Assembly (NCBI GenBank): GCA_963736525.1
Contig: CAVTPF010000004.1
Location: 44,989 to 108,988, forward strand
Source: an uncultured Acidimicrobiaceae bacterium
Lineage (GTDB): Bacteria; Actinomycetota; Acidimicrobiia; Acidimicrobiales; RAAP-2
Length of the DNA: 64,000 bases
Reading direction: 5' to 3'
Below, piece by piece: positions 37,213 to 55,845 of this stretch (its first letter is position 1; each line of letters opens with the position of its first letter). Both the position numbers and the translations under genes were made by a program. Under the pieces are notes generated by a model. The model saw only the letters and a list, made by a program, of their open reading frames with translations, searched no databases and had not been told where the DNA came from.

Positions 37213-37217
37213 CGGTC

Positions 37218-38030
37218 GTGAACACCGGGGCTGAGCCAGTCCCTCGGGTCGACGTGCTGGGGGTGGGCATCTCGTGTGTCGATCTCGAGACCACGACGGA
37301 GATCTTCGCGAAGTGGATCGCCAACGAGGCGCGCCGGTACGTCTGCGTGACCGGCATGCACGGCGTCATGGAGTCCCAATCGGACGACGCGCTCCGGGAA
37401 ATCCACAACGCATCGGGCCTCACGACGCCCGACGGCATGTCCATGGTCTATGCGGGCCGCTGGGCGGGAGCCCGGCTCGCACGGGTCTACGGGCCCGATC
37501 TGATGGAGGAGGTCCTGGCGGCGGCGCAGGAGGCCGGGTGGTCGAGTTACTTCGTGGGCGGGGCACCCGGGGTCGCGTCGCGTCTCGTCTCGATGCTGCG
37601 GGGCCGGTTCCCAGGCCTCGTGGTCGCCGGATCCTCGAGTCCCCCCTTCCGGCGCCTCAGCGCGGCCGAGGACGAGGAGCTCGTGCAGGAGATCAATGGG
37701 TCGGGGGCCGACATCGTCTGGGTCGGCCTCGGGACGCCCAAGCAGGAGTTCTGGATGGCCGAGCACCGGTCCCGGCTCGAGCCGGCGGTGCTCGTGGGTG
37801 TCGGAGCGGCCTTCGATCTCCTCTCCGGAACCGTCCGCCAGGCCCCCCGCTGGGTGCAGCGGAGCGGCTTCGAGTGGCTCTTCCGGCTGGCCGTGGAGCC
37901 CCGGCGGCTCTGGCGGCGCTACCTCCTCAACATCCCCCGCTTCGCGGTGGCGCTGGTGCGCCGGCCCCCGACGATGCGGCCGACCCCTCCGGGGTCCCCC
38001 CTAGCGCACCTTGACGAACAAGGCGTGTGA
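37218..38030 (+). CDS. WecB/TagA/CpsF family glycosyltransferase
   Basis: VDVLGVGISCVD..., TPDGMSMVYAGR, VGLGTPKQEFWM and SGFEWLFRLAVEPRRLWRRYL. Confidence 0.8.
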   Translation: MNTGAEPVPRVDVLGVGISCVDLETTTEIFAKWIANEARRYVCVTGMHGVMESQSDDALREIHNASGLTTPDGMSMVYAGRWAGARLARVYGPDLMEEVLAAAQEAGWSSYFVGGAPGVASRLVSMLRGRFPGLVVAGSSSPPFRRLSAAEDEELVQEINGSGADIVWVGLGTPKQEFWMAEHRSRLEPAVLVGVGAAFDLLSGTVRQAPRWVQRSGFEWLFRLAVEPRRLWRRYLLNIPRFAVALVRRPPTMRPTPPGSPLAHLDEQGV

Positions 38031-39527
38031 ACTGCTCGGACCGTCGTTGGCGTCGCCCGAGTACATCGCCACCACGTCGAACGGGGAGCCAGGCTGGGGC
38101 AGGCCGCCCGTGAGCGAACAGGTCGCGCCGCTCGGGGTGAGCACGATGGCATTGGAGCCCCCGTCGCACGTGATGGCCGGCGACGACGCCGGGGTGAACT
38201 TGATCTGCTGGTCCGTCGCCGACGTCGGCGTGGTCGACAGGTCCACGGCCGGGCTGGTCGCCAAGACGGTGGTCCCGCCCGTGATGTCGCCCGGCGTCGT
38301 CAGGTCCGTCACGACATCACCGACCTGGACGTCGGCGAGCGAGCATCCCGTCACCCGGCCGACGCTCGACACCGTCGTGAGAGTGCACCCGCTCTGGGTG
38401 ATCGGCTGCGAGGTGAAGGTGAAGGTGACCGTTCCCGTGGGGACCACGCCCTGCAGCGAGGGGACGACCGACGCGGTGAAGTGCACCGGCGTGCCGTGTA
38501 CCGGCGGCATGGGATTGCCCGCCACGTAGGTCTTCGAGGAGAGGGGGTCGATGCCCTGGCTGGCGCTCTGTTGGCTTGAGGAGTAGTTGAGACTCCCGGT
38601 GTAGGCCGCCATCACGGTGTACGGCGCACCGCTGGCGACGAGCTGGCCGGCGGCCACGACGCACGTCGCCGTCCCCGTCCGGCTGACCGTGATGATGGTG
38701 CCGTTGGAACAGGCGATGGCCGGGCCTCCGCCCGTCGGCGTGATCGTGAACACGACACCGCCGGTGGGTGTCCCCGTCCCCGGGGAGACGGCGGTCACGG
38801 TGGCGGTGTAACGGGCGGCGTGGCCCGAGGGATAAAGGTCGTGGGGGTTGTCCTGGAACGTGAGGGATTCGGTGGGTGACCCCGTCGCCGGCAAGGACAG
38901 CACCATGGTGTTCGGCATCGCGTGCTTGTCGAGCGTGACGACCGTCGTCCCGCCCTGGATGGCACCCTCGGTGTCGGTGACGGTCGCACCGGGTGTGACG
39001 CCGCTGAGAGAGGGGCAGGTCACGTTCACGGTGATGTTGAGCACGCACCCGCCCTGGGTCACCGGCGAGGTGACGGCCGTCGACGTGAGCGAGACCGAAC
39101 TGTCGGAAAGGCCCACCGACTGTGTCACCGAATTGGACGAGCTGGGGTCGTTGTTGGGATCGCCGAGGTAATTGGACGTCACGACGACCGACACATCCTC
39201 GGAGGCCGAGAGCGCGGTGGTCGTGCACTGCGCCACACCGGCGACCAGCGGCTCGGTGTCCGTCGCACCCGCACAGACGTTCGGGGCACCCGGGATGGTG
39301 AAGGTCACCGAACCCGTCGGCACTGGCCCGGGAGGCACCTCCGAGACGGTCGCGGTGAAGGTGACGGATTGCCCCGTCACCGATGGGTTCGGCGAGGAGG
39401 CGAGCACGGTCTGGGTGACTGACGGGTTCGCCGACGCCGACCCACTGAACGTATACACGCCGAAACCCGCCCCCGCGAGCACCACCGCCATGGCGGCGAT
39501 CCTGACCTTCACCGGAATTCTCGCCAT
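38001..39527 (-). CDS. Secreted Ig-like-domain repeat protein
   Basis: Signal peptide MARIPVKVRIAAMAVVLAGAG. Repeated units of the form SVTFTATV...PTGSVTFTI. and ...YTVMAAYTGS. Confidence 0.7.
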   Translation of the reverse strand: MARIPVKVRIAAMAVVLAGAGFGVYTFSGSASANPSVTQTVLASSPNPSVTGQSVTFTATVSEVPPGPVPTGSVTFTIPGAPNVCAGATDTEPLVAGVAQCTTTALSASEDVSVVVTSNYLGDPNNDPSSSNSVTQSVGLSDSSVSLTSTAVTSPVTQGGCVLNITVNVTCPSLSGVTPGATVTDTEGAIQGGTTVVTLDKHAMPNTMVLSLPATGSPTESLTFQDNPHDLYPSGHAARYTATVTAVSPGTGTPTGGVVFTITPTGGGPAIACSNGTIITVSRTGTATCVVAAGQLVASGAPYTVMAAYTGSLNYSSSQQSASQGIDPLSSKTYVAGNPMPPVHGTPVHFTASVVPSLQGVVPTGTVTFTFTSQPITQSGCTLTTVSSVGRVTGCSLADVQVGDVVTDLTTPGDITGGTTVLATSPAVDLSTTPTSATDQQIKFTPASSPAITCDGGSNAIVLTPSGATCSLTGGLPQPGSPFDVVAMYSGDANDGPSSSHALFVKVR

Positions 39528-39606
39528 GACCTGCAGCGGCCCTTCTTCCTCTCCGGTCTATCCGGTGACGGGTGACGGTGCGGCCCCACCGACACCGGGA
39601 CCCGTG

Positions 39607-41211
39607 TCAGTACGCTCCCATTCGGCGCAGGACGCTGACCGGCGTCTGGAGGAGTATGCGAAGGTCCCACAAGAGCGACCATGAGCCGACGTAGACCGAG
39701 TCCAGCCGGCAGAGGTCGTCCCAACTCAGATCGCTGCGCCCACTGACCTGCCACAATCCGGTCATGCCGGGGGGCATGTCGAAGCGTGCGGCGGCCGGAC
39801 CCCGCGAGAGGGCCGGGAACTCCTCGACCGGGAACGGGCGAGGGCCGACCAGCGACATCGTGCCGCCGATCACGTTGAAGAGCTGTGGGAGCTCGTCGAT
39901 GCTGAAGCGCCGCAGGAACCCCCCCACCCTGGTGACCCGGGGATCGTGCTCCATCTTGAACCGGGGTCCGTCGGCGTCGCTCTGCTCCATGAGGTCGCCG
40001 CGCAGGGACTCCGCGTTCTCGACCATCGTGCGGAACTTCCAAATGGAGAAGTGCTCCCCACCCAGCCCGGCGCGACGCTGCCGGAAGAAGGCGGGCCCGG
40101 GTGAGTCCAACCTGATGGCGAGCACGGCGGCGAGCAGGACCGGTGCGAACAGGACCAGGGCGAGCGACCCGATCACCAGGTCGACGGCGCGCTTCCCAAA
40201 CCGGGCCAGGGTCCCGTGCTGAGCCGGCACCAGCGGCACCAGCGGCATGCCGGCCAGGTCCGCCGTGCCGGAGCGCCAGGTCATCAACTCGTAGAGCGAC
40301 GGCACAATGGCCACGTCGACCACACCGAGCAGCGGCCGGATGATTTCGGAGACGGCCAACCACGGGACCCGGGGGATGGCGACGATGACGCGGTCGACCT
40401 CGAGCTCCTCGCAGAGCAACGGCAGGTCCGCCAGGGTGCCGATGGTATCGAACCCGGGAAGAGGGTCGTCGTCGACCATGCCCAGTGCCGTGATGAGCCC
40501 GTGGCGCCGCAGGCGCTGCAGGACGTGGTCACCGGCTTCACCCGCCCCGACGACCACCACACGCTGTGCGCGCAACAGACCCAGCCGGGTCCCGAGGTGG
40601 CTCACGGCCGACCGGACCATCGGCACGGAGACGATGCTGGGGACCAGGAGGCACGCTGCCAACGCGAACGTCGCCAGCACGCCGGCCGACGATCCAACGG
40701 AGAGCAGGATGGCGACGGTGCACAGCGCCGCCACCGGCAGCGAACGGGACACCTTGGTCACGACCCCCATCCCCGACGGGATGATGCGCAGTCCGTTACC
40801 CCGGTACATGCCGTGGTACAGGAACGAGATCAGCAAGGCCGGGATGACCAGCCAGGGCGCCCAGCTCGTCGGCGCGCCGAGACCGGCGGCGGTGGCGACG
40901 CCGAGCCCCAATCCGACGGACAGCGCGGCACCCGCCAGGTCCATCGCGAGTGGGGCGATGATGCTCTGCACTCGTCGCCGGTTGGGCCTGACCCCCCTAC
41001 CGGCGCGTGCGGTGCTCGTCCGTTGGACCGGGTCGGCGGTGCGGAGCCTGGCCTCCTGGGCCTGGAGGTGTGCCAGTGGGGAGTCCGCTTCGCCGGTGCC
41101 CGGGATGGCGATCGTCGGTGGAGCGGGCTGCGTCGCGGCGGCGGATCGGAGGGCCTCAGGCGGGGGCCCAGTCTCCTCGCTGATCGCCGTCGCCACTCCC
41201 GGATCGTCCAC
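39607..41211 (-). CDS. Polyprenyl glycosylphosphotransferase (priming sugar transferase, WbaP/CpsE type)
   Basis: N-terminal helices, a Rossmann-like VVVVGAGEAGDH block, then KRAVDLVIGSLALV...RLDSPGPAFFRQRRAGLGGEHFSIWKFRTM...DELPQLFNVIGGTMSLVGPRP. The start is uncertain; the GTG at 41211 was chosen. Confidence 0.8.
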   Translation of the reverse strand: MDDPGVATAISEETGPPPEALRSAAATQPAPPTIAIPGTGEADSPLAHLQAQEARLRTADPVQRTSTARAGRGVRPNRRRVQSIIAPLAMDLAGAALSVGLGLGVATAAGLGAPTSWAPWLVIPALLISFLYHGMYRGNGLRIIPSGMGVVTKVSRSLPVAALCTVAILLSVGSSAGVLATFALAACLLVPSIVSVPMVRSAVSHLGTRLGLLRAQRVVVVGAGEAGDHVLQRLRRHGLITALGMVDDDPLPGFDTIGTLADLPLLCEELEVDRVIVAIPRVPWLAVSEIIRPLLGVVDVAIVPSLYELMTWRSGTADLAGMPLVPLVPAQHGTLARFGKRAVDLVIGSLALVLFAPVLLAAVLAIRLDSPGPAFFRQRRAGLGGEHFSIWKFRTMVENAESLRGDLMEQSDADGPRFKMEHDPRVTRVGGFLRRFSIDELPQLFNVIGGTMSLVGPRPFPVEEFPALSRGPAAARFDMPPGMTGLWQVSGRSDLSWDDLCRLDSVYVGSWSLLWDLRILLQTPVSVLRRMGAY

Positions 41212-41610
41212 CGACCCGGAGGTTAGGGAACCCAGGTAAACGGGGGTCGAACGGATTGTGATACCCGGATGATTCCGGGGTGAACAGGGGGTGGATCCGG
41301 CCTCTGGGCAGTTCGGGAATGCTGTGGGCCGACTGGAAGTCCGGTCCGCCGGCAGCGGGGGGCAGCTCGAGCACGCCCGGGAGGGTCCCGCGGATGGCCC
41401 GCGCCCCGTCCGTGTCCGCCCAACGCCACAACGTCGCCTCCGGAACGAGCCTCTGGCGAATCCGGCCCTGCCACAGGCGCCTGCGGTCGACCGCCCACGC
41501 CCGGTGGGCGAACCCGTGCGGGTCGACGTACCACGAGCCCATGCCCGACGGGTTCGCCGCGCTGCGGAGCCGTGCGGCGGCAAGCTTGGGACGGCGGCGG
41601 CGCAACATGG

Positions 41611-41811
41611 TCAGTTGTCGAAGACCCCGACCTGGGTCTTCCCGTGGAAGCCCTGGGGGGTGATGTACTCGAACTGGTCGATCCCGGCCGGCGGCACCAA
41701 GGAGGCGAAGAGCCAGGCGGGGAGCAAGCCGTTCTTGGTGTAGACGACGTTGTGACCCGTGGACACCCGTGGAGACACCGCGAGGCCGTTCGCCTCGGTC
41801 GACACGGTCAC
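41611..41811 (-). pseudogene. Decayed paralogue of the 49967..50488 lipoprotein gene
   Basis: It aligns to the 3' and central parts of 49967..50488, but lacks the signal/lipobox end (TGA just upstream in frame) and about 35 internal codons (...LPAWLFASLVPPAGIDQFEY versus ...LPAWLFAAKGEPITF...MTPPAGIGQFEY). Confidence 0.5.
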
Positions 41812-41914
41812 CGATTGTCCGTTGACGATGACGGTGCCCGACGCGAACGCGGGAGCCGTGGTGAGGCGGCCAGCGCGCCGATTTCAACAGCGAACATCAT
41901 GATTGGTATCGACC

Positions 41915-43063
41915 TCACAGGGTTGGGGGTAGCAAAAGGTACACATTTGAAAACCACTCGAGTGCCAGCGCGAGCACGATCGGCGTGCTGACGAGATACA
42001 CGGTCCAGATCTGCCGCGGTGCCCTGCGATACACGACGAAGGTCACGATGAGGGCGGCAGCAAAAACGAGGCCCCACAGCACCGACGGACCGATCGCAGA
42101 CGCGTCGCCCGCCAGCGCGCGCTGGGACGCGGGCGCGAGCGTCGTCGGGACCGGGGCATGCGCCGGTGCACTGGTCAGCTTCGCAATGACGTAGGCGCGT
42201 CCGGTGGGGATGAAGGGTGCATTGGCCGTGACCAGCGTGAGCCGCGCCGTCCTGGTGGGGCTGATCGGATCCACTTCACCAGCGGTCGCGGTGCCCACCT
42301 GTTCGACCTCGTAGCGAAACACGCCCAGGCCGGTCACGATCGTGATGGGATCACCGCGACGCAGGCTGAGGATGTGGGCGAACGGCGCACCGCTCGTGCT
42401 CCGACGACCCGCTATGACGGAGTTGCCCCTGGTCCCCGGCCGCGCCGTGCCCACCATGGCACCCGGGCCCTTTGCGGTGTCCGCGGCACTGGTCCCCTCG
42501 ACCACGACCTGCTTCAGGCCGATGCTCGGGATGAGCAGCACGGCCACCGGTTGCCCTTCGGGGGGCACGCGGCCGCTGTAGAGGGCCTGCGCTGACGGGG
42601 TCAGGAACTCGTTGAGCAGCGCGTGCTGCTCCCGCTGCTGCTGCAGGCCGGTGAACATGAACGCGTAGACGACGAAGAGCACGAGGCACGCGCCCACGGT
42701 CACGAAGCTCAGGGCCACGGCCAGCATCAGCCGGTCGGCTCGTTGCTCGGTGCTGGCGGCCGGCGCCGCGTCGGTGCGGATCGCCGTCTTGGCTCGATGA
42801 ATGACCGAGACCCTGTCGATCCCTTCGGGATCACGGAACGCCGGGACTGGCTCCGCGACGAGCGAGCGGGTGATGCGCCCCCCGGGCGCGTCCCCGTGGA
42901 GAACGCGCCGGGCCGCGCCACCCGAGCGGGTTCGCGTGCGTGGGTAACGCCCCTCCGTCGGGTCCGGGACGAAATACCTCCGCAGGCGGTGCAGTGAACC
43001 GCGACGTGGGGGCCAATCGCTCACCGGCGGTGCAGGGCGCGCCTTCTCGGCGACCGGCGTCAC
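41915..43063 (-). CDS. Class E sortase homologue with catalytic His and Cys replaced (pseudo-sortase)
   Basis: IPSIGLKQVVVEGT...KGPGAMVGTARPG..GNSVIAGRRSTSGAPF...RRGDPI...RLTLVTANAPF aligns with the class E pattern IP.LGL..VVVEGT..KGPGH..GTA.PG..GN..IAGHRTTYGAPF...LTL.TC. It has an N-terminal helix and two C-terminal helices. The start lies between 42727 (ATG) and 43063 (GTG). Confidence 0.65.
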   Translation of the reverse strand: MTPVAEKARPAPPVSDWPPRRGSLHRLRRYFVPDPTEGRYPRTRTRSGGAARRVLHGDAPGGRITRSLVAEPVPAFRDPEGIDRVSVIHRAKTAIRTDAAPAASTEQRADRLMLAVALSFVTVGACLVLFVVYAFMFTGLQQQREQHALLNEFLTPSAQALYSGRVPPEGQPVAVLLIPSIGLKQVVVEGTSAADTAKGPGAMVGTARPGTRGNSVIAGRRSTSGAPFAHILSLRRGDPITIVTGLGVFRYEVEQVGTATAGEVDPISPTRTARLTLVTANAPFIPTGRAYVIAKLTSAPAHAPVPTTLAPASQRALAGDASAIGPSVLWGLVFAAALIVTFVVYRRAPRQIWTVYLVSTPIVLALALEWFSNVYLLLPPTL

Positions 43064-43082
43064 GACAGGCGCACCGAGGAGC

Positions 43083-45560
43083 TCACACCGGGCCGGGGCG
43101 GGAGCGCGCCGCCCCCAACCATCCCGGTACCTTCTTGAGGCGGACGGCCACCTTGGCTGACCAGGCTCGGATCCGTGTGGACAGCGCATGGCCGGTGTCG
43201 AAGACGTGGCGGCGCAACCCGGCGCTGAGGAACAGCAGCGAACCCATGAGCAGCGCGAGGATCCCCAGGAGGATCACCACCGGGAGCAGGTTGGAGCTGG
43301 CGCTCGCCACCAGGGAGAGCGAGCTCAGTGATTGGTGATGGCCCGACGACGGGGAAGCCGAAGCCTGATGCGAATTCGTCGAGGGGACACCGCCTCCCGT
43401 CCCCTTGATCGTGCCCGGTGTCGTCGTCGTGTGCGACGGGGAGGCCGAGCCCGAAGGTGCGTTCGCACCAGCGCTCGCGGTCGCGGCACTGGCGGTTCCT
43501 CCCGGCTGCCCGTTGACCGGGGCAGGTCCAGCCGACCCGGCGGTGCCCGACCCCGAGGAGCCCGAGGAGCCCGAGGGCCCGGACGGTGCGGTCGTGGTCG
43601 TCGTCGGTGCACCCTCGTTGGCGAAATCGTTCGCAATGTCGTTCTGTGCCTGCTGGTAGAGCGCACTCGGTAGCGGCACGAAGCCGGCAGGCAGGTCCGG
43701 CGTGTCGGAGCCACCGGTCAGGTTCAAGACCTGGCTCAGCATGGCCTGGTCGGCGGCGGCCTGCGTCGCCGAGACACCCCGCGTGGGAACGACGGCATAC
43801 GTGATGGAGGGCATCGGGTAGGCGTTGGGATCGGTGGTCGTGTAGTTGGGAGTGAGCGAGCCGTCGGCGTTCTCGGTGGCGTCGCTCACCGCGGCGTCGA
43901 GCGACTGCTGCGTCGGTAGCACGAAGTTGCCGGATGGGTTCTGGAGGGCCGCCACGCTCATGCCGAAGTACTCGGCGTCCGCCCAGTCCATAGAGGCAAA
44001 TCCCGCATACGGTTCGGCCTGCTGCAGCGTCGGCTGTACAGCCGCGACGATCTTGAGCGCCTGTTGGGAGGGTCCTTGGTACGCTAAATAGGAGGTCAGC
44101 CCCTGTCGCACCGGGGGGAACTGCTCGTCGGTCGGACACGTCGCCAGCGGCTTGCCGGTCGGGTTCAAGCCGGACTGGAGAACCGCCGCCGCCGTTGATG
44201 GCTCGGAGAAGTTCGCCCCGACCGCCGACACGCTGACCACAGGAGCCTTGCACAGCCAAGCGAACAGTTGCCCCGTGGGACCGGCCGTGTCCGATCGCAC
44301 GTACCCGGCGAAGGACTGCGGCATGAGGAACGCGCTATCGAAGTTGACCTCGTTCATCAAGGAGCACTGCGTGATCGGCTTGTTCTTCTTCGTGGAGACC
44401 GGGCAGGGAGGCACCGTGCAGCCGCTGCTCTGGCACGCCACCACGTCGGACGTTGCGATGTTCTCGTAGTATCCGGTCAGCAAACCGGCCACCATGCGCG
44501 GGGTCAGGTCCATGGCGTCTAAGGGCACCAGCTGCTGGTGTGATGCCGTACGCTCCTCGGCGGTGAAGGAGACGACATTGGCGCTCAATGCGATCGGGAT
44601 GAGGGCGAAGTTGCCCATCTTGAGCTCTACCTGCTGGTCCGCCTGTTCGGGATCGTCGGTGAACGCCACGTCGATCAGACCCTGTTGCAGGGACGTGACC
44701 GCGCTGAGGCCGTCGATGGCCGTGTTGAAGGCGATCGTTGGGTCCGGTCCGCCGCATCCGATCCGGGCGGCCACCGGGAAGAGGATGTCAGATCCGAAGT
44801 CGCTCTGCGTGTTCACCGTGTTGGCCCCCGGGCATCCGCTTCCCGAGGCTAGGAAGCTGACGGGAACCACTGCAGTGGTCGAAGGCACCAGCGTGAGCGC
44901 GCCGCTGTTGGTGGGACCTGTGTCGGTGATGTCGACCGAGCATGGTGAGGCCGCGTTGCAGAAGAACGCGCCCGTGTCGGCGTTGTCTCCAGGTGCTGCG
45001 CCTGAGAGCGGCGTCGACGTGGAGTCCACCTCGAGAACCTGGAAGCTCACACTGGTCGCCCCGTTCGGGAAGGCTTCTGTCTGATAGTCCACTTCGGAAA
45101 CGCCCTGACCGCCGGTGTTCACACAGAGTTGGTCCGAGGGAAGCGGTGCCGTGTCGGAGCAGTAGTTGATCTGTGCGTAATCGCCCACGCCCGGCGTCGA
45201 GGTCCAGTCGTAGAGGTTGACGTAGACCCACTGGGCCGGTCCGAGGTCGCTCACCGGGCCCACCTGGTACGTCGGGCAGGTCGTTCCGCTCGGGCACGTG
45301 GCCGGGATGGTCCCGCAGGCGTCGCCGGTCGGGCAGGCCGGGGGGGCAAGCAGATCGTGTGACACCGAGAAGCTCGGGGTCACAGCCACCCCCGGCGCGG
45401 TCACCGCGGTGGTGGTCGTGCCGTGCGCCTTCGCGACGCTCCCGTGCGCCGGGGGGGAACCGGCAGCCCCGTGGCTCGAGGCCGCGGCCTGCGTCACGGG
45501 GATCACGAGGAGGAACAGGCCGGCCAGGAGCGCCGTGACGGCCTTCCTGCCACGCGTCAT
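43083..45560 (-). CDS. Large exported Cys-rich protein with a PstS-fold (type 2 PBP) domain, a Ser/Gly/Thr-rich stalk and a C-terminal membrane anchor
   Basis: The ATG at 45560 follows GGGGGAGG. Signal peptide MTRGRKAVTALLAGLFLLVIPVTQAAA and about 18 Cys. PBP-like blocks: FALIPIALSANVVSF, YVRSDTAGPTGQLFAWL, YPMPSITYAVVP and GFVPLPSALYQQAQNDI. The C-terminal helix is LLPVVILLGILALLMGSLLFLSAGLRRH. Confidence 0.65.
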   Translation of the reverse strand: MTRGRKAVTALLAGLFLLVIPVTQAAASSHGAAGSPPAHGSVAKAHGTTTTAVTAPGVAVTPSFSVSHDLLAPPACPTGDACGTIPATCPSGTTCPTYQVGPVSDLGPAQWVYVNLYDWTSTPGVGDYAQINYCSDTAPLPSDQLCVNTGGQGVSEVDYQTEAFPNGATSVSFQVLEVDSTSTPLSGAAPGDNADTGAFFCNAASPCSVDITDTGPTNSGALTLVPSTTAVVPVSFLASGSGCPGANTVNTQSDFGSDILFPVAARIGCGGPDPTIAFNTAIDGLSAVTSLQQGLIDVAFTDDPEQADQQVELKMGNFALIPIALSANVVSFTAEERTASHQQLVPLDAMDLTPRMVAGLLTGYYENIATSDVVACQSSGCTVPPCPVSTKKNKPITQCSLMNEVNFDSAFLMPQSFAGYVRSDTAGPTGQLFAWLCKAPVVSVSAVGANFSEPSTAAAVLQSGLNPTGKPLATCPTDEQFPPVRQGLTSYLAYQGPSQQALKIVAAVQPTLQQAEPYAGFASMDWADAEYFGMSVAALQNPSGNFVLPTQQSLDAAVSDATENADGSLTPNYTTTDPNAYPMPSITYAVVPTRGVSATQAAADQAMLSQVLNLTGGSDTPDLPAGFVPLPSALYQQAQNDIANDFANEGAPTTTTTAPSGPSGSSGSSGSGTAGSAGPAPVNGQPGGTASAATASAGANAPSGSASPSHTTTTPGTIKGTGGGVPSTNSHQASASPSSGHHQSLSSLSLVASASSNLLPVVILLGILALLMGSLLFLSAGLRRHVFDTGHALSTRIRAWSAKVAVRLKKVPGWLGAARSRPGPV
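44949..45027. repeat. 79-nt segment matching 50631..50709 with one mismatch
   Basis: Aligned by eye, with a single mismatch (gaacgcgcc versus gaacgtgcc). Confidence 0.85.
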
Positions 45561-45811
45561 GGTGCCTCCCCCGACCGCGGCTCGTCCGTGACGTCGCCGC
45601 GCCGGCGACGCGCGATCGCGACGGCCGGCGGCAGGGCCAGCAGAGCCAGGAGTCCGAACGCGGCCAGAAGAACATCGGCGTTGGGCCCGGGCGACTTCAA
45701 CAGGAAAGCAGTGGTGCGCTGCAGGGCGACGCCGGCAACCTGGCCCGGCGCCGCCGAAACCTCGTTGGCCGCCTTCTTGGCCGCCGCGGCCGCGGCGGCC
45801 TTGGCCTGTGC
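45535..45811. repeat. 277-nt segment about 97 percent identical to 50710..50987
   Basis: Aligned by eye, giving about 7 substitutions and one 1-nt indel. It covers the start of the large PBP gene and the anchor-coding 3' end of the upstream ORF. Confidence 0.85.
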
Positions 45812-46183
45812 CGGGCTCGTCGGCGACGTACTGCTGCTGCCGGCACACCGGGCGCCCCAGCTCTCGGCTCGGGCTCCACCGTGAGCAGGCGCAGCGGTCG
45901 CGAGTCCTCCGGCGACGCCCCCTGTGGTGGGGGCAAAGGTAGCGGCGCCGCCGGCCGATGGCGAAGCCGACGCGCTGCCGGTCACCGGCTGCTGGAGCGA
46001 CGCGCTGGCCGATGATGCAAGGGGCGTCGCGGTTGGACGCAGTCGGGGTCGGGCGGAGGTGAAGTCACTAACCGTCTGCGTGACCATGGGGAATGCCGGA
46101 TCAGACCGCGTGAGGCGGCTCCGCAGGCGTATCGGGGTGAAGCGAGAGTCCTGCGAGGGAATGTCGGGTGCCGAGGCTGTCAC
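45557..46183 (-). pseudogene. In-frame deletion chimera: pstC N-terminus fused to the stalk and anchor of the PstS-like anchored protein
   Basis: MTASAPDIPSQDSRFTPIRLRSRLTRSDPAF matches pstC2 MTVTTPDAPAESPRFTPIRLRSRLSRSDQVF. The C-terminus ...[74 protein letters not shown] matches the tail of 50733..52448. The GTG start is the same as in pstC2, and the stop overlaps the next start (ATGA). Confidence 0.5.
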
Positions 46184-46362: not shown

Positions 46363-48138
46363 TTACTGGTTGGCGTTCCCGTCCGTGGTGGAGACGGCGC
46401 AGTAACCCGGGGGGTTGGGCGCCGTCGGGATGGACGTGTTCACGCCACTCGGGCCAACCGCCGGGCCGCCCACGTCCAGGTAGGTGGCACCGCCAGCATC
46501 GCTCGCGAGGAGGCTGATGGCGGTGTGCCCGACGCTGCCTTCGGAAGCCGCGGCCCCCGTCGGGAAGCTCAGGTCGGCGTACGTGGGGCCGCTCGCGGTG
46601 GCGTCCAGCGGAATGAAGCCCTGCTGGAGGATCGTGTTCTCGATCTCGGTCGCGTACCAGATGCCGGTGGCCGGGTCGACGATCTCGTCGCTGGCCCCCG
46701 TCGGCGTCGCGTTGCCGCTGACCGTTTCGGGCTTGCAGACGAACCCGATCTCGCTGACGTAGTTCAGCGTTGCCGCGGTCGCCGGCGGAATGTTCGGGTT
46801 CGAGCCGTTCGAGTACACGTTGTACACGTCACGAGGATCCGGGAACGACCCGTTCAGGACGCTCTGCGGGGTGGGGGCGATGCCGTTGATCGAGCCGAGA
46901 ATAATCTTGCCGCTCGCGCCGGTCGTCGCCCCGCCTCCGCAATCGGCACCGACCTTGCTGTTCACCGTGCCGTCGAGACCTGGCAACACCGTCTTGTCGA
47001 ACGCCTCGGCCTTCAGCTTCTCGCCTCCGCACTGATCGGCGTACCTACCGAGCGAGTAGAACATGATGGCGTCTGCGTAGGTCGAGGGTTCGACGCTGGT
47101 CAGCTCGTTCTCCAAGATGGTATCCGGACCCGCGCAATTGGTGCCGGGACCGGCCGGGTAGACCGCGGGCTTACCCGACGGCGACGGCGTCGAGGCGCAG
47201 TTGACCGAGTTCGTGCTCGCCGTGGGGTCGAAGCCCATGAAGCTCTTCCACGTCGCCTGGGTGCCAGAGCCCTCCTGGGCCGCGTACACGATGATCGGAG
47301 CGGCCTTACCGCCGACCTGGGCCCAGTTGTAGATGGTCCCGTTCCAGATGCCCTGCAGTTGCGCCTGAGTCAGGCTGGACACCTTTGCCGAAGGCGTCGC
47401 TCCGGCCGAGGTCTTGGTCCAGTGGATCCACGACACACCGTCCGTCGCGTAGGCGACGAAGTTGAGGCCCTGGATGTCGGCGCTGCCGGGCTTCCGGGAT
47501 GACCGAGCGTAATCGATGTACGAGATGTTCTCGACAGAGTTGGCATCACCGATGCCGTTGCCTCCTGAGCCCGAGGCCTGGTTGTCCCGACCCTCCTCCA
47601 GCTGGGCGATGCCGTTCGACGACCCCATCGCTGACTGCGATACGGCGATGTCATTGACCGGGTTGTCGAGGTAGGCATTGTCCCCGCCGGCCGCGCCCAG
47701 GTCGGGTGGGATCTGCTCGCTCGTCACGCCCGCTGCACCGTAGAGGCCGCCGTCTGCCGACGGCACCGTCGTCCCGAGGCAGCTGTAGTTGAGCTCCTGT
47801 TGGGAGGCCGGAGCCACGTACGTAAACGAGGTCGTGGTGATGTTGCACCCCGGCGTGTGGTTGAAGAGGGAGTCCATCGCCTGCATCAAGGCGTAGGTTG
47901 TTTGCGAGCCGCTCCCGGTGATGATGTTGTTCTGCGGCTGTGCACCCGGGACCGAGTAGGTAGACCCGGTCTCGTCCGAATGGACCGTGGGGTTGACCGG
48001 CGGTGTGCTCGCGGCACCGGCCGTGCCAGCCCACGAGAGGCAAATGGCAGCTGCACTCGCCAGGGAGGCGCCCATCGCCAACCGGTGGCGACGCCTGCGC
48101 CCGGGTGGCACCCACGCACCTTTCAGTTCCTTTCGCAT
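46363..48138 (-). CDS. Oversized secreted PstS-family (PBP_like_2-type) substrate-binding-fold protein
   Basis: Signal peptide ...ASLASAAAICLSWAGTAGAAS. Blocks: ITGSGSQTTYALMQ, AMGSSNGIAQL, YARSSRKP and IIVYAAQEGSGTQATWKSF. It is 591 aa, against about 300-370 aa for ordinary PstS. AAGGAA lies upstream of the ATG. Confidence 0.7.
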   Translation of the reverse strand: MRKELKGAWVPPGRRRRHRLAMGASLASAAAICLSWAGTAGAASTPPVNPTVHSDETGSTYSVPGAQPQNNIITGSGSQTTYALMQAMDSLFNHTPGCNITTTSFTYVAPASQQELNYSCLGTTVPSADGGLYGAAGVTSEQIPPDLGAAGGDNAYLDNPVNDIAVSQSAMGSSNGIAQLEEGRDNQASGSGGNGIGDANSVENISYIDYARSSRKPGSADIQGLNFVAYATDGVSWIHWTKTSAGATPSAKVSSLTQAQLQGIWNGTIYNWAQVGGKAAPIIVYAAQEGSGTQATWKSFMGFDPTASTNSVNCASTPSPSGKPAVYPAGPGTNCAGPDTILENELTSVEPSTYADAIMFYSLGRYADQCGGEKLKAEAFDKTVLPGLDGTVNSKVGADCGGGATTGASGKIILGSINGIAPTPQSVLNGSFPDPRDVYNVYSNGSNPNIPPATAATLNYVSEIGFVCKPETVSGNATPTGASDEIVDPATGIWYATEIENTILQQGFIPLDATASGPTYADLSFPTGAAASEGSVGHTAISLLASDAGGATYLDVGGPAVGPSGVNTSIPTAPNPPGYCAVSTTDGNANQ

Positions 48139-50488: not shown

Positions 50489-50532
50489 GGTGACGTCGGA
50501 CCTCACAGAGTCGGGGGAGCAACAGGGACAGG

Positions 50533-50736
50533 TTGGAGAACTATTCGAGTGCCAGGGCAAGCACGATCGGAGCGCCGAGAAGATACACGGTCCAGATCTG
50601 TCGCGGTGCACGACGATGCGCCAGGAAGGTGGCCGCGTTGCAGAAGAACGTGCCCGTGTCGGCGTTGTCTCCAGGTGCTGCGCCTGAGAGCGGCGTCGAC
50701 GTGGAGTCCGTGACGGCCTTCCTGCCGCAGCGTCAT
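50533..50736 (-). pseudogene. Composite remnant: large-PBP gene start plus a 79-nt internal piece plus the sortase-homologue 3' end
   Basis: 50710-50736 matches the start region of 43083..45560, with a frameshifting indel. 50631-50709 matches 44949-45027. 50541-50632 matches 41950-42045 at about 80 percent identity and encodes ...RRAPRQIWTVYLLGAPIVLALALE*. Confidence 0.55.
50631..50709. repeat. Partner of repeat 44949..45027
   Basis: See 44949..45027. Confidence 0.85.
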
Positions 50737-50987
50737 GGTGCGTTCCCCGACCGCGGCTCGTCCGTGACGTCGCCGCGCCGGCGACGCGCGATCGCGACGG
50801 CCGGCGGCAGGGCCAGCAGAGCCAGGAATCCCAGCGCGGCCAGAAGAACATCGGCGTTGGGCCCGGGCGACTTCAACAGGGAAGCAGTGGTGCGCTGCAG
50901 GGCGACGCCGGCAACCTGGCCCGGCGCCGCCGAAACCTCGTTGGCCGCCTTCTTGGCCGCCGCGGCCGCGGCGGCCTTGGCCTGTGC
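50710..50987. repeat. Partner of repeat 45535..45811
   Basis: See 45535..45811. Confidence 0.85.
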
Positions 50988-52448
50988 GGCGGCCTGGGCT
51001 GCCGCCTGCGCCGAGCTGGCCGACGTGCCGCTGGTGGAGGTCTTGCCACCCGCCGACGACGCCGACCCCGGTCCGTTGACCGTGGCGGGACCACCGTGTG
51101 CCGCGGCCGGGCCCGCTGCGGCCGTCCCCGCGGTGGCGGTGGCGGTGGCGGCCCCGCCCGATGACGGGGTTGCGGGCGCGCTCCCGATCACGGGCTCGCC
51201 CTGCAGAGGCAGCTGCCCATCAACGTACGGGTTCGGGCAATTCGACGCATTCGGGGCCGGGAGGGCGGTACCGGTGATGCGTTGCACCGCGTCGAAGTCT
51301 GCCTGGACCAGGTTCGGCGGCAGGGGCGAGTATCCCAGCGCACCGGCCGACTGTTGGCCCCGGCAGGCCACGAACTGGACGAACTGACCCTCCTCGGCCT
51401 GCTTGTCAGACGATATCTCGCTCTGCTCGGCCATGATGAGGTAGCTGTAGGCCGAGATGGAGTAGGCCGTCGGCTGCGTCGACTCGAAGACGGGGACCAG
51501 GTTCTGCTCGAGGTCCGGCTGCAGCGCGTCGGATTCCAACGCGACGGCGTCGGCCGTTTCGGAGGGCTGGACGTACGCCCCGCTGGCGTTCTGTACCGCC
51601 GCGCACGGGTCGTGGTGCAGGATCGCGTAGGCCGTCTCGACGTACGTGATGGAACCCGGGTTGCCGTAGACGTAGTTGGACGCGTTGTCAGACCCGGACT
51701 CGCCGCTCCAGTTGCCGAAGTTGTAGGGGCCCACCGTGCGCTGTCCCCCCTGCGGGATCGGCCAGATGGCCTGCGCCCCGGGCGGCGACTGCACGGCACT
51801 GGTGAAGGCCGACCACGCGGACCCCTGCAGGGTCGAAAGGTAGTCCGAGAAGATGTAGTTGTCGCCCGACGCATCCGTTCGGTAAACGACGACGATGGGT
51901 GTGTTCGGCAGCTGCACGCCCGGATTGAGTGCGGCGATGGCCGGGTCGTTCCACTTCGTGATGGTGCCGCTGAACATGCCGACCATGACGCTGGAGTTGA
52001 GCTTGAGCGACGTGATCTGGTTGCCCAGATTGTCCTGGAGGTTGTACATGAGGCAGGTCGCGCCCGCAACGTCGGGCAGGTACTGGTAGCTGAACCCCGC
52101 TGCCGGCTCCTGGTTCGCCTGCCCGGTGCTGTAGCCGATTTCGCTCGCACCGAAGTCGACCAGCGGGTACTGGGCGAAGTTGTTGAGACCGATCACCGAC
52201 GACGTCGTCGCGTAGTTGATGTTGTCGCCGTAGAGGCTCTGCACCTGCGAGGCCCACTGGTTAATGGCGACGGCGGCATAGCTCGAACCGGTCCCGGAGA
52301 TCGTGGGACCCGACGCGCCGGCGACCTGCGGACGCGTGACGAGCAGACCGCAGGCCGCGGCCAGGCATGCCATTATGCAGGCGATTCGGCTCGCCGCCGC
52401 GGGCACCCGCCTCCTGGTCGGGGTTTCAGCCAAAACGGCCATGGACAT
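50733..52448 (-). CDS. PstS-like phosphate-binding-fold protein with an Ala-rich stalk and a C-terminal membrane anchor
   Basis: The start at 52448 or 52442 overlaps the pstB2 3' end. The signal is [37 protein letters not shown]. The blocks [25 protein letters not shown] and [19 protein letters not shown] mirror PstS1. The tail is [37 protein letters not shown]. Confidence 0.75.
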
Positions 52449-53265
52449 AGTCAGACGTCCTCGGGTCGACGGGTTGGGCGAAGATCTGGGTCGTCGGTCC
52501 CGACTCGACGATCCGCCCCGGCGTGTTCTCCTCGGCGAGGAAGAAGGCGCACGAGTGCGAGACGCGCTGGGCCTGCTGCATGTTGTGGGTGACGATGACG
52601 ACCGTGACATCCTCGGCGATCTCGTCGATCGTCTGCTCGATGCGGTTGGTCGACGCCGGGTCGAGCGCCGAGCACGGCTCGTCCATCAACAGGACCTTGG
52701 GGCGTACGGCGAGGGCCCGGGCGATGCAGAGGCGCTGCTGCTGGCCGCCCGAGAGCGCTCCCCCAAGGTCACGGAGCCTGTTCTTGACCTCGCTCCACAG
52801 TCCCGCCCGGGTGAGGGAGTACTCCACCAGGTCGTCCTTGTCGTGGATCCTCGTTCTCGTGAAGCGCAGGCCCGACAGCACGTTGTCGCGGACCGACATG
52901 GCCGGGAACGGGTTGGGGCGCTGGAACACCATGCCGATCTGGCGCCGCACCTCATTGGCCCGTTGGGTCGCTCCGTAGATGTCCTCGCCGTCGAGTTCCA
53001 CGGAGCCCGCCAGCTGTGCGCCGGGAACGACCTCGTGCATACGGTTGAGGATACGCAGGAAGGTCGACTTCCCACATCCCGAGGGTCCGATGAGAGCCGT
53101 GACCTGGGAGCGCTCCATGTCAAGGTTGACGTCCTCGAGCACGCAGCGGCTGCCGAACCACGCGCACACACCGCGCGCCACGAGCTCACCCGCCTGCGGG
53201 GCCGCGGTCGCAGCCCCGTTTTTGCTCGCCTCGTGCACGGCCGGGGTCGGCTGGGTCGTCGTCAT
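52426..53265 (-). CDS. pstB: Phosphate ABC transporter ATP-binding protein (second copy)
   Basis: [36 protein letters not shown] and [11 protein letters not shown]. The ATGA overlaps the pstA2 stop. Confidence 0.9.
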
Positions 53266-54494
53266 GGCGAGTCCCCTCTCGGGCGCATGACTCCCGAGGC
53301 ACCACGCACGGCCGCGCCCGCCGCGCCTTTCATGGCGGCGTTCGCCTCCCTCGCGTTACGGCGTCCCCGGATCTTGTTCCCGAGCCACGTGCTGCCCAGG
53401 ACCCGGGCCAGGATGAAGATGATGAAGACCATGATGAAGAGCACAAGGGCCGCCGTGTAGCCCAGCTGGATGTCCGCCGCCTGCGACGATCGTACCTCCG
53501 TGTAGGCCAGCAGCGATAGAGCCGACTGGGGCCCGCTGAACGGGTTGGCGTTCATCAGCTTGTTGCCGAAGATGGTGAGGATCAACGGCGCCGTCTCGCC
53601 GAGTGCCACGGCCACGCTGATGAGGACGGCCGTGATCAGGCCCGACTGGGCGGTGGGGAGGACGACGGACCAGACGGTCCGCCACTGCGGCGCGGCCAGC
53701 GCGGCGGACGCCTCCCGCAGGTCGTCCGGCACGATTTTCAGCACTTCCTCGGTGCCCCGGGTCACCGTGGGCAGCAACAGGACGGCCAGGGCCAGCGCCC
53801 CGGCGAAGCCCGAGTAACCGAAATGGAGCGTCTCGATCAGGAGGGAGTAGACGAAGGCACCGGCGACGATGGCCGGGACGCCGCTCATCGCAGTGACGAT
53901 GATCCGGACCCAGCGCGTCATGCGGCCCCCGACCTCGTTTAGGTAGACAGCGGTGAGCACCCCCGCCGGAACGCCCATCATGGCGGCCAGCCCGATCTGC
54001 TCCAACGTGCCGACGATGGCGTGGGCCACCCCCGGCTTCGGGCACGGCTCACCCGGGACGCACAGCTCGAGCACGCCCTTCTGCGTGGCGAAGAGGAGAT
54101 GGATGGACAAGAGCTGCCAGCCCTTGATGAAGAGGAACACCACGAGCAGGACCAGGGGGGCGAACATGCACAACGCCCCGAGCGTGACCAGCGCGGCTAC
54201 CGTGCGGTCCGTGGCGACACGGCGCCCGTAGACCTGCGTGTTCACGGCCCAGTACATGGCCAGGAAGAGGACGAACCAGCAGATGACGAATCCGGTCGGT
54301 CCCGAGAGGAACGTCAGCTGCTCGAAGAGGATCCAGACCGTGGCGAGCGACGAGGCGATGGAGACGGCGAGCACACCCAGTTCGCCGGGCTGCATCTCCC
54401 TCGGCCGGCGCGGCACCTTGCTGCGGGGCCGCGGGTACGTGGGCGTCGGTCGCGGCGGTGGCGCCAGGACGGGTCGCTGATCGGTGAGGGCCAT
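53262..54494 (-). CDS. pstA: Phosphate ABC transporter permease (second copy) with a Pro-rich N-terminal extension
   Basis: The ATG at 54494 overlaps the pstC2 stop (TGATG). It has the [15 protein letters not shown] loop and six helices. Confidence 0.85.
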
Positions 54495-55495
54495 CAGTGC
54501 GCCTTGGACCGGCTGACGATGACGGACGCGATGAAATTCACCGTCAGGGTGAACACGAAGAGCACGAGTCCGCACGCCAGCAGCGCCGAGAGGCCGAGCT
54601 TCCCACCGGACCCGAACCGGTTGGCGATCAGCGCGGCGATGGAGTTGCCGCCGGACTGAAAGATTTGTTCGGAAATCCCGTAGTTGAGACTCAGGATGAT
54701 GGAGACCGCCACGGCCTCGCCGAGGGCGCGGCCCAGGCCCAGCATGATGGCCCCGATGGTCCCGCCGAACCCGAACGGGAGCACGACGTCGCGCACGACG
54801 CGGGCGCGGGTGGCTCCGAGTGCCATGGCGCCCTCGCGCTCACCGACGGGCGTCAACGAGTAGATCTCGCGGGTGATCGACGTGACGATGGGCATGATCA
54901 TGATCCCGACCAGCACCCCGGCTATGAAGTACGAGGACGTGAAGACCACCGTCCCGTTGGCGACGTGGAAGATGGGAATGAAGCCGAGGTGCACCGTCAA
55001 GAACTTCGCGATGTCCTTGAGCCGCGGTTGGAGGAAGAAGAAGCCCCAAAGGCCGTAGATGACGCTGGGTACGGCGGCCATGAGGTCGACCATGGACGTG
55101 AGAAATCCCTTGAGTGGGAAGAAGCCCAGGAAGCTGCGCGGCGCGTACTCGTTGATGAACAGCGCGGATCCGATCGACACCGGCACCGCCACCACGACGG
55201 CGATCAGGGCGATGACGACCGATCCGTACAAGGCGGATTCGACGCCGAACTGGGGATGGGCGCCGGTGGTGACGAAGCCCGTCGTCGTGAAGAACTTCCA
55301 GCCGGCGGCGCGCAGGGCCGGCAAGGCCTGAAGGAAGAGGAAGAGCCCGATCAGGATCAGGACGAGGAAGGTGAAGCCGCCTGCGGCCTTGGTGACGAGC
55401 CTGAAGACCTGATCGGACCGGGAGAGCCGGCTGCGCAGCCGGATCGGGGTGAAGCGGGGGCTCTCGGCGGGAGCGTCAGGTGTGGTGACTGTCAC
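54494..55495 (-). CDS. pstC: Phosphate ABC transporter permease (second copy)
   Basis: GTG start. It has the EGAMALGATRARV EAA loop and a PstC-like helix pattern. Confidence 0.85.
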   Translation of the reverse strand: MTVTTPDAPAESPRFTPIRLRSRLSRSDQVFRLVTKAAGGFTFLVLILIGLFLFLQALPALRAAGWKFFTTTGFVTTGAHPQFGVESALYGSVVIALIAVVVAVPVSIGSALFINEYAPRSFLGFFPLKGFLTSMVDLMAAVPSVIYGLWGFFFLQPRLKDIAKFLTVHLGFIPIFHVANGTVVFTSSYFIAGVLVGIMIMPIVTSITREIYSLTPVGEREGAMALGATRARVVRDVVLPFGFGGTIGAIMLGLGRALGEAVAVSIILSLNYGISEQIFQSGGNSIAALIANRFGSGGKLGLSALLACGLVLFVFTLTVNFIASVIVSRSKAH

Positions 55496-55573
55496 TGAAG
55501 AGCACTTTCATGTTCCCTCTGAGTTGTCAGTGCTGCCGCCCTGATCCGCCGAGAACGCTCAGCCCCGGTCGCC

Positions 55574-55735: not shown

Positions 55736-55845
55736 TTCTTGTCGAAATAAAAGGCCCTATGATTTTGCCCGTCGAGCGCTTGCCTCGATGGGCAGCGGCG
55801 CACCAATCTGGCGCTCCCTGAAAGCGAATTGACCGAGATGACGCA

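Follow-up and report, generated by a model that had tools for sequence, protein, structure and literature searches.

Identity of the gene product and its altered active site

A gene encoded within a phosphate-uptake (Pst) gene cluster of an uncultured Acidimicrobiaceae bacterium raises the question whether a sortase homologue without the catalytic histidine and cysteine is a damaged enzyme or a retained protein with another role. The gene lies in a stretch of 64,000 nucleotides (the window; contig CAVTPF010000004.1). A sequence-only reading had proposed a retained, non-catalytic partner protein with the sortase fold rather than a dead gene, and this interpretation is supported by the analyses described below. 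The gene is termed SrtX in the following. Its product and the residues relevant here are:

41915..43063 (-), SrtX, pseudo-sortase gene of 382 aa with a GTG start; Arg-rich cytoplasmic N-terminal region, TM1, ectodomain with predicted sortase fold, TM2-TM3 hairpin
42728..43063 (-), N-terminal cytoplasmic extension (112 aa)
42602..42724 (-), TM1 and its juxtamembrane helix (residues 2-42 of the 270-aa form), containing the only Cys of the protein
42170..42556 (-), predicted sortase-type beta-barrel domain (residues 58-186 of the 270-aa form)
42455..42460 (-), codons GCC ATG, Ala-Met in place of His228-Tyr229 of class E sortases (SrtE1 numbering)
42404..42406 (-), CGT, Arg at the position of the catalytic His (SrtE1 His251)
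42224..42226 (-), GCC, Ala at the position of the catalytic Cys (SrtE1 Cys320)
42197..42199 (-), CGC, retained third sortase active-site residue (SrtE1 Arg329 equivalent)
41939..42103 (-), conserved C-terminal TM2-TM3 hairpin
41918..41935 (-), conserved extreme C-terminus LLPPTL

The assignment to the sortases is far beyond chance. The Pfam family Sortase (PF04203) was matched with 69.3 bits (E 3e-19, cut-off 26.6) and TIGR01076 with 41.3 bits (cut-off 39.35). The best-scoring subfamily was the NCBIfam class_E_sortase (NF033747), although the score of 93.8 bits is below its cut-off of 160. The best solved structure by sequence was SrtE of S. avermitilis (5go6/5go5, E 8e-13). In an AlphaFold model of high confidence (pLDDT 94.1, pTM 0.90), strands were found between residues 60 and 184, and all top hits of a Foldseek search against the PDB were sortases (4d70, SrtD, TMt 0.82; 5go6, SrtE, TMt 0.79, rmsd 1.8 Å). 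The terminal helices noted in the sequence-only reading were confirmed in the model (TM1, residues 2-42; TM2/TM3 hairpin, residues 209-263 with helices at 209-235 and 237-263). In the hairpin, W218 and P249 are near-invariant and the YRR loop faces the cytoplasm. The extreme C-terminus (family variants LLPATL and LLPNLL) is non-helical and confidently modelled (pLDDT about 94), and L266 and P267 are invariant or near-invariant.

The motifs GPGA, AGRRSTSGAPF and TLVTA are present as described in the sequence-only reading. An end-to-end BLASTP alignment (38% identity) to P0339, a genuine His/Cys class E-type sortase, places Ala on the His of GPGH, Met on the following Tyr, Arg on the His of AGH, Ala on the Cys of TTC and Arg (R177 of the 270-aa form) on the conserved Arg. 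The His of GPGH, listed as a hallmark position in the sequence-only reading, is not catalytic, but neighbours Tyr229, the residue recognizing LAXTG in class E sortases (PMC5148588), which is also lost here. Since the only Cys of the mature 270 residues is located in the first TM helix, no thiol can be supplied from elsewhere in the ectodomain. The three His residues (H35, H119 and H192) are not conserved in the family.

The GTG start (43061-43063) lies 19 nt after the TGA (43083-43085) of the upstream 825-aa gene and is supported by three close orthologues starting at the aligned position. The extension shows in-frame indels, a dN/dS of 0.28-0.55 and conserved motifs (MTPVxEK, LHRLRRYFVP, GGRxTRSL and TEERADRLML) in three orthologues; it is more weakly constrained than the remaining protein and varies in length across the family. 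A 424-aa reading from ATG 43189 was rejected, since it overlaps the upstream gene by 107 nt and is not in line with the start of the orthologues. One deposited annotation uses the shorter ATG 42727 start (P0003, 270 aa), another one the long form (P0423, 382 aa).

Loss of the catalytic residues throughout the family

The substitutions are not a strain-specific lesion. Among about 390 homologues from three searches, only five carry Cys at the former nucleophile position. These five are canonical His/Cys class E sortases forming a separate clade. The Cys position is occupied by S67/A48/G3/T2 in the first set (121 homologues), by A89/S30/V5/T3/G3 in the second set (130 homologues) and by S98/A32/T7/C5/G4/L1 in the exhaustive representative set. 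At the His position, R112/H7/K2, R114/K8/H8 and R110/H30/K4/S3/A1 were counted, respectively. Both positions toggle (S/A/G/T and R/H/K) even among orthologues in the same operon, and His-retaining forms (homologues P0012 with His and Gly, P0039 with His and Ser) occupy the identical operon position as Arg forms. The Arg equivalent to SrtE1 Arg329 is kept in 83 of 121 sequences of the Acidimicrobiia-type branch, but not in the Pseudonocardiales/Micromonosporales branch. The dN/dS of 0.10-0.15 indicates purifying selection. While the sequence-only reading pointed out that the Arg codon CGT is one transition away from CAT, the loss is ancient and family-wide rather than a recent event of this kind.

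The family counts 1,517 hits in one search and at least 175 clusters at 50% identity with E<=1e-30. Its members are named “sortase”, “sortase A” or “class E sortase” in public records, so that sortase censuses and substrate predictions for Actinobacteria are probably inflated by non-enzymes.

Genomic context

The neighbours, referred to as large PBP in the sequence-only reading, are PstS-fold proteins (in part predicted) of a phosphate ABC importer. The relevant features of the window are:

43083..45560 (-), P825, secreted, tail-anchored, divergent protein with predicted PstS fold; signal peptide, beta-rich domain, PstS fold, disordered linker, motif SNLLP (family [ST]R[YFL]LLP), TM helix, basic cytoplasmic tail
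50733..52448 (-), PstS571, near-canonical PstS with a C-terminal TM helix (LLALPP) and an RRRR tail instead of a lipid anchor
46363..48138 (-), PBP591, third and unanchored PstS-like protein, ending in a conserved ..GYC.. motif
52426..55498 (-), pstB (52426..53265), pstA (53262..~54575, start uncertain) and pstC (~54494..~55498, start uncertain)
50513..50709 (-), relic of a second P825-SrtX copy; a P825 fragment (50631-50709, 99% identical to 44949-45027) fused to the last ~35 codons of SrtX (50513-50630, 80% identical to 41926-42043), with an in-frame stop
45554..45811 (-), relic of a PstS tail, 98% identical to 50730-50987, within the ORF 45557..46183, its stop overlapping the P825 start

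The pst genes were assigned by ABC_tran and BPD_transp_1 hits, PstS571 by TIGR00975 (198 bits, slightly below the cut-off of 205) and PBP591 by PF12849. P825 gave no Pfam hit, and a phmmer search against PDB sequences gave nothing useful (EfeO, E 0.26). Only the fold search with an AlphaFold model of lower confidence (pLDDT 72.9) identified it as PstS-like (PstS-1, 1pc3, E 6e-15, TMt 0.74-0.79). The relics were detected by a repeat search of the window, and the P825-SrtX relic additionally by tblastn (E 2.6e-14). The redundant second copy of SrtX decayed to a stub, while the copy studied here stayed intact.

The module was found in about 90 loci, from Acidimicrobiia to Polymorphospora and Kribbella. 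The order pstCAB-PstS-P825-SrtX-PBP591 was found in about 55 of 61 species-representative genomes and in 29 of 29 metagenomic loci with enough downstream sequence. In every locus examined, the members with R/H and S/A/G at the two sites lie inside a Pst-type module, co-oriented with its genes. The pattern used to scan genome contigs (GN[SA]VIAGRR) preselects Arg-Arg forms, and the His-site counts from those loci were therefore not used. Furthermore, the metagenome scan seeded with PstS returned only the same subfamily and no PstS without an anchor and without SrtX, so that the association test is one-sided. In the species-representative genomes, P825 was always encoded immediately upstream of SrtX. 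The P825 stop and SrtX start are adjacent or overlapping. In some lineages SrtX lies between P825 and pstB. One 980-aa protein fuses a P825-like domain to SrtX, but this is a single cluster and could be an assembly or gene-calling artefact.

Both anchored partners show the tripartite layout of sortase substrates, with a short conserved juxtamembrane motif, a TM helix with conserved Pro/Gly/Cys and an Arg-rich tail. A TM helix plus a basic tail was present in 53 of 59 PstS and 49 of 62 P825 orthologues, with conserved motifs sRyLLP..GpLLL..RRr and gpPL..RRRr, which are, however, only moderately conserved across orders. No real LPXTG or LAXTG was found in these tails (2 of 59 and 1 of 62 matches, at chance level). 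A scan of the window for LPXTG/LAXTG clients or a second, true sortase revealed only the decayed relic. A search for Streptomyces-type PHO boxes (GTTCACCN4GTTCACC, up to 3 mismatches) found 11 sites against 6.9 expected, none of them upstream of pstC, which is not significant.

Possible role of SrtX

Taken together, SrtX is an intact membrane protein with three TM helices under purifying selection, the ectodomain of which has the sortase fold but lacks the nucleophilic Cys, the catalytic His and the class E specificity Tyr. The best explanation, which is inferred, is that SrtX has kept the ability of a sortase to engage the membrane-proximal C-terminal signal of a tail-anchored client, but no longer cuts it. 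It might serve as a non-covalent receptor or scaffold, using the former substrate groove for the juxtamembrane motif and its TM bundle for the client TM helices, and in this way hold the anchored PstS and P825 at, or deliver them to, the PstCA translocator. SrtX would then be an accessory subunit of the importer. There is no direct evidence of binding. A probability of roughly 0.55 is assigned to this reading. The Arg329 equivalent missing in the Pseudonocardiales/Micromonosporales branch argues against it, since a strictly conserved peptide-binding mode would predict that this residue is kept. Residual chemistry in some members is not excluded, because most of the family has Ser at the Cys site. 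More tentatively, a sortase lineage might have been converted, once and anciently, into a non-cleaving sorting-signal receptor that captures the C-terminal motif-TM-RRRR tails of the two PstS-fold proteins and docks them to PstCA. This would be a previously unrecognised way for monoderm Actinobacteria to tether substrate-binding proteins, and the first functional pseudo-sortase. No description of pseudo-sortases, Cys-less sortases or a link between sortases and pst was found in the literature searched. The linkage also points to an undescribed architecture of high-affinity phosphate uptake in soil and peat Acidimicrobiia and in cultured, genetically accessible genera (Kribbella, Kutzneria, Polymorphospora, Actinophytocola and Dactylosporangium).

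A different non-catalytic role within the Pst module is possible, but less likely. SrtX might be a sensor or regulator binding an anion (phosphate, a phospholipid or teichoic-acid-type polymer, or polyphosphate) via the near-invariant Arg (Arg-Arg in this branch) in the former active site and signalling through its cytoplasmic N-terminal region to PstB or the Pho regulon. Alternatively, it might be a biogenesis or insertion factor for the tail anchors rather than a stable subunit. Arg is present at the His site in at least 90% of the sequences in two of the three homologue sets (74% in the exhaustive representative set), suggesting a newly selected role rather than mere loss, and the location between P825 and pstB in some lineages as well as the cytoplasmic extension conserved in close relatives would fit. 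On the other hand, His, Lys, Ser and Ala also occur at this site in proteins occupying the same operon position, the second Arg is Ala or Ser in the other main branch, the N-terminal region is poorly conserved and variable in length, and no PHO-box-like signal was found.

It is improbable that SrtX is still an enzyme with non-thiol chemistry, either with a Ser/Thr nucleophile as transpeptidase or hydrolase or with Arg-assisted catalysis, processing the atypical tails of PstS and P825. Ser is the commonest residue at the Cys site in two sets (67 of 121 and 98 of 148), some members keep His together with Ser or Thr, and the tails of the neighbours are substrate-like. However, the protein studied here has Ala, its closest orthologues alternate Ala and Ser at 79-87% identity, Gly and Val also occur, His is replaced by Arg in most members, and neither another conserved nucleophile (the invariant residues are Gly, Pro and Phe) nor a conserved scissile motif such as LPXTG is present.

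Even less likely is a function with the flanking cell-envelope polysaccharide genes (Bac_transf, WecG, Wzy/GT4, Big_3_5). Bac_transf and Big_3_5 genes follow SrtX in the window and its nearest relatives, and one distant homologue (P0330) is fused to a GT2-like membrane protein, but these neighbours are absent in most loci and in Polymorphospora and Kribbella, the pst genes and PstS-fold partners being the only constant neighbours. A decaying pseudogene or a strain-specific inactivation, for which only the single transition between CGT and CAT speaks, is refuted by intact ORFs in hundreds of genomes, the low dN/dS, the family-wide substitutions and the comparison with a real decayed copy in the same window.

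Comparison with known systems

With class E sortases (SrtE1/SrtE2 of Streptomyces coelicolor, SrtE of S. avermitilis and of Thermobifida fusca), SrtX shares the best sequence and structure matches (33% identity to 5go6/5go5), the block order GPG.., ..AG.R.T.GAPF and TL.T, the N-terminal TM anchor and the actinobacterial distribution. It differs in the lack of Cys320, His251 and Tyr229, the score below the NF033747 cut-off, the absence of LAXTG clients, a conserved extra C-terminal module of two TM helices and the location in a pst operon. The His/Cys relatives represented by P0339 have the same TM1-sortase-TM2-TM3 architecture and the same LLPxx(L/I) C-terminus, and form the sister clade in an NJ tree, which makes them the likely ancestral type. 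They keep GPGHY, AGHR and TLTTC, and the one locus examined is not in a pst context.

As in the PstSCAB phosphate importers of Actinobacteria (PstS-1/PstS-3 of M. tuberculosis, PstS of Streptomyces), pstC, pstA, pstB and a near-canonical PstS are present, and multiple PstS paralogues occur as in mycobacteria. Here, the anchored PstS proteins carry a C-terminal TM helix rather than an N-terminal lipid, and the module additionally encodes a protein of ~800 aa with a predicted PstS fold and an extra beta domain as well as a pseudo-sortase; to our knowledge, neither addition has been described for known Pst systems. Inactive rhomboids (iRhoms, Derlins) may provide an analogy, being conserved membrane-embedded protease folds which lost their catalytic residues and probably bind TM clients without cleaving them, although they are eukaryotic and of unrelated fold and client binding of SrtX is only inferred. 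If it applies, SrtX would be a further natural case of a protease fold repurposed as a client-binding module. Dedicated sortases with an adjacent single target, such as the class GN “marine” sortase (TIGR03784) and its LPXTG target, appear to share with SrtX the location next to a small, fixed set of genes for tail-bearing clients, whereas those sortases are catalytic and their targets carry LPXTG-type motifs.

Sequence and predicted fold

The minus-strand ORF ending at 41915 (SrtX) reads exactly as described in the sequence-only reading, which had claimed a class E sortase homologue devoid of both the catalytic His and the catalytic Cys. Its GTG start codon at 43061-43063 is located 19 nt after the TGA (43083-43085) of the upstream gene, which encodes an 825-aa protein (P825). 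The motifs GPGA, AGRRSTSGAPF and TLVTA are present, with the Arg encoded by CGT at 42404-42406 and the Ala by GCC at 42224-42226. The assignment to the sortases is strong. The Pfam Sortase profile scores 69.3 bits (cut-off 26.6), while NCBIfam class_E_sortase is the best subfamily with 93.8 bits, which is below its curated cut-off of 160. The best solved relatives by sequence are S. avermitilis SrtE structures (5go6/5go5). An AlphaFold2 model built on 119 homologues is very confident (pLDDT 94.1, pTM 0.90) and shows a long TM1 helix, an eight-stranded barrel and a C-terminal TM2-TM3 hairpin. The Foldseek matches of this model in the PDB are all sortases, namely SrtD 4d70 (TMt 0.82) and SrtE 5go6 (TMt 0.79, rmsd 1.8 A).

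A genuine His/Cys class E-type sortase recovered in an exhaustive search (P0339) aligns end to end at 38% identity and fixes the residue correspondences. GPGHY of the class E sortase corresponds to GPGAM in SrtX, AGHR to AGRR, and TTC to a TAN context with Ala at the Cys position, while the conserved Arg is retained. His251, Cys320 and Arg329 are the catalytic residues of SrtE1, and Tyr229 is the class E residue that reads LAXTG (PMC5148588), so that three of the four function-defining residues are gone. The only Cys in the 270 C-terminal residues is inside TM1, so no thiol is available in the ectodomain.

Distribution of the Cys-less proteins

The loss of the catalytic residues is a family trait rather than a local lesion. 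In a word-indexed search with the window protein and in a second search seeded with the Polymorphospora member (1,517 hits), none of the residues listed for the Cys column was Cys.

Residues at the former catalytic positions in aligned homologues
Search with the window protein, 121 sequences aligned: Cys column S67/A48/G3/T2; His column R112/H7/K2
Search with the Polymorphospora member, 130 sequences aligned: Cys column A89/S30/V5/T3/G3; His column R114/K8/H8

The second search recovered the cultured genera Tenggerimyces, Micromonospora, Actinocrispum, Kutzneria, Dactylosporangium, Actinophytocola, Actinokineospora, Kribbella and Solihabitans. The exhaustive scan yielded 7,013 hits at E<=1e-3, 2,145 at E<=1e-10 and 175 at E<=1e-30. 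Five sequences carried Cys, and these are canonical AGHRTTYGAPF/TLTTC sortases. In an NJ tree of 139 full-length representatives, these five form one clade and all 134 Cys-less proteins form the other, with H/R and S/A/G/T states interspersed within the Cys-less clade. The tree, which has no support values, suggests a single ancient loss of Cys followed by free toggling. The sources name these proteins 'sortase', 'sortase A' or 'class E sortase'.

Selective constraint and gene start

The window gene was compared with three orthologues at 79-87% identity. The 270-residue core has a dN/dS of 0.10-0.15 (dS of 0.8-1.2). Within this close set the former Cys site is Ala, Ala, Ser and Ser, and a side-chain hydroxyl is therefore not required there. 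The 112-residue N-terminal extension has a dN/dS of 0.28-0.55, in-frame indels, conserved motifs and start codons aligned with GTG 43063. This supports the coordinates of the sequence-only reading over a shorter annotated form (deposited protein P0003, 270 aa), while another deposit uses 382 aa.

Genomic context

The neighbourhood of SrtX is the most informative result. The genes relevant for the comparison are the following:

43083-45560, minus strand: P825, a protein with a predicted PstS fold
46363-48138, minus strand: PBP591, an unanchored PstS-like protein
50733-52448, minus strand: PstS571, a nearly canonical PstS
49967-50440, minus strand: c157, a small conserved secreted or lipoprotein-like gene without a Pfam hit
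48693-49439, plus strand: a 248-aa secreted protein without a Pfam hit

The window's proteins were mapped by tblastn onto 61 species-representative genomes, mostly of uncultured Acidimicrobiaceae and Acidimicrobiales. About 55 loci show the order pstC-pstA-pstB-PstS-P825-SrtX-PBP591, while in a few loci the pst genes are divergently adjacent. An independent metagenome scan seeded with the PstS found SrtX in 29 of 29 loci with at least 4.5 kb of downstream sequence. The locus sets are, however, dominated by MAGs, and the association was assessed without a negative class. In Polymorphospora the order is pstC-pstA-PstS(535)-P830-SrtX...pstB. In Kribbella caucasensis it is pstC-pstA-PstS(602, anchored)-SrtX, followed by a PBP591-like gene, a P825-like anchored protein and pstB. 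Relatives that retain His (P0012 with H+G, P0039 with H+S) occupy exactly the same position, whereas a true His/Cys relative does not. P825 and SrtX, separated by 19 nt here, abut or overlap elsewhere. In Polymorphospora, the gene just upstream of pstC (locus L004, 2787-3590) encodes a Pro/Thr-rich secreted protein ending in a canonical LPKTG + TM + RR sorting signal, so that a true sortase client sits beside the pseudo-sortase module in that genome.

In relatives, c157 often follows SrtX (loci L001, L005, L066, L070 and L072), while in the window it is located after PstS571. The 248-aa secreted protein recurs near the module in many related loci, in variable position and orientation. The pst/SrtX module of the window is embedded in a cell-envelope polysaccharide cluster (35137-41583 and 55822-62989), comprising a beta-helix protein, WecG/TagA, a Big_3_5 surface protein, Bac_transf, a Wzy_C-GT4 fusion of 929 aa, a BY-kinase-like AAA_31 protein and GH18.

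Proteins encoded next to SrtX

PstS571 scores 198 bits with TIGR00975 (cut-off 205). Its signal peptide contains TRRRVP, a possible twin-arginine motif, which raises the possibility of a Tat-exported, tail-anchored PstS (compare the Tat-dependent tail-anchored proteins described in PMC10924467). P825 is not recognised by any Pfam model. Its predicted structure (pLDDT 72.9) shows a signal peptide, a beta-rich domain, a PstS fold, a disordered linker, a TM helix and a cytoplasmic helix. The PstS fold matches PstS-1 1pc3 at E 6e-15, with TMt 0.74-0.79 to several PstS structures. P825 has many conserved Cys residues, and its phosphate-site motif reads RSDTAGPTG where the family consensus is RSDxSGSTG. 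PBP591 and its orthologues share a conserved extreme C-terminal ..G(Y/F)C.. motif across about 55 loci, which suggests a structurally or functionally important terminal Cys.

A TM helix followed by at least three Lys/Arg was found at the C-terminus of 53 of 59 PstS orthologues and 49 of 62 P825 orthologues. The tail consensus is ..gp..lW.ll.l..l.gpPL.a..rrRRr for PstS and sRyLLP.lllLALlcLvaGpLLL..P.lRRr for P825, while LPXTG/LAXTG is absent apart from chance-level matches. This is the tripartite layout of a cell-wall sorting signal without the cleavable pentapeptide, and the conserved residues inside the TM segment suggest a specific intramembrane partner. Two fusion proteins were found among the representatives. 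P0321 (980 aa) joins a P825-like PstS-fold domain to SrtX, and P0330 (838 aa) joins a GT2-like polytopic membrane protein to a His+Ser sortase-like domain. Each is a single cluster, and the P0321 fusion should be treated with caution.

Remnants of a duplicated cassette

The module was once duplicated in the window and then decayed in a complementary way (49966-50987 and 41610-45811). One copy keeps PstS and c157, the other P825 and SrtX. Their relics are the following:

Directly after the PstS571 stop: a 200-nt stub with an in-frame stop, made of the first codons of P825, a 79-nt internal P825 fragment (99% identical to 44949-45027) and the last ~35 codons of SrtX (80% identical), followed by the intact c157 gene
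45554-45811, upstream of the intact P825: a PstS tail relic, 98% identical to 50730-50987
41610-41880, minus strand, downstream of the intact SrtX: an internally deleted c157 relic

The 208-aa mechanical ORF at 45557-46183 (minus strand) is not a gene. Only its last ~85 codons are a copy of the PstS571 tail, and it could be mis-annotated as a small anchored protein. The repeats have different ages (98-99% against 71-80% identity), which suggests a later gene conversion or recombination. Exactly one intact copy of each gene survives. Unneeded SrtX DNA decays quickly in this genome, which underlines that the retained copy is maintained.

Possible role of SrtX

SrtX combines a sortase fold, the loss of Cys, His and Tyr, purifying selection and a likely descent from three-TM class E sortases with linkage to pst genes and with sortase-substrate-like tails on two co-encoded PstS-fold proteins. 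From this we infer that SrtX might still engage such tails without cleaving them, acting as a receptor or scaffold which keeps the anchored binding proteins at PstCA or delivers them there. We assign this reading a probability of about 0.55; no binding or activity data exist, and the sortase Arg is not conserved in one branch. The extreme C-terminus of the family itself (LLPPTL, LLPATL or LLPNLL; L266 and P267 near-invariant) resembles an LPXT motif and is predicted to emerge on the outer face, so that it might occupy the groove in cis.

A different non-catalytic role, such as anion sensing through the conserved Arg or a function as biogenesis factor, is less likely but remains possible. The Arg is strongly conserved, although H/K/S/A also occur at the same operon position. 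Residual non-thiol catalysis is improbable, since it is contradicted by Ala/Gly/Val at the site and by the absence of any other conserved nucleophile. A role in the flanking polysaccharide cluster is even less likely, as that linkage is not conserved, and a pseudogene is refuted by conservation and dN/dS.

Comparison with known sortases

No description of Cys-less sortases or of a sortase-pst link was found in full-text literature searches. SrtX is a member of the sortase superfamily by fold and by profile, but it lacks the features defining a sortase enzyme and class E, i.e. a score above the subfamily cut-off, the Cys, the His, Tyr229 and LAXTG clients. Its closest relatives are uncharacterised His/Cys class E-type sortases with the same three-TM architecture. 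SrtX can be regarded as a conserved pseudo-sortase with a specific, nameable partner system.
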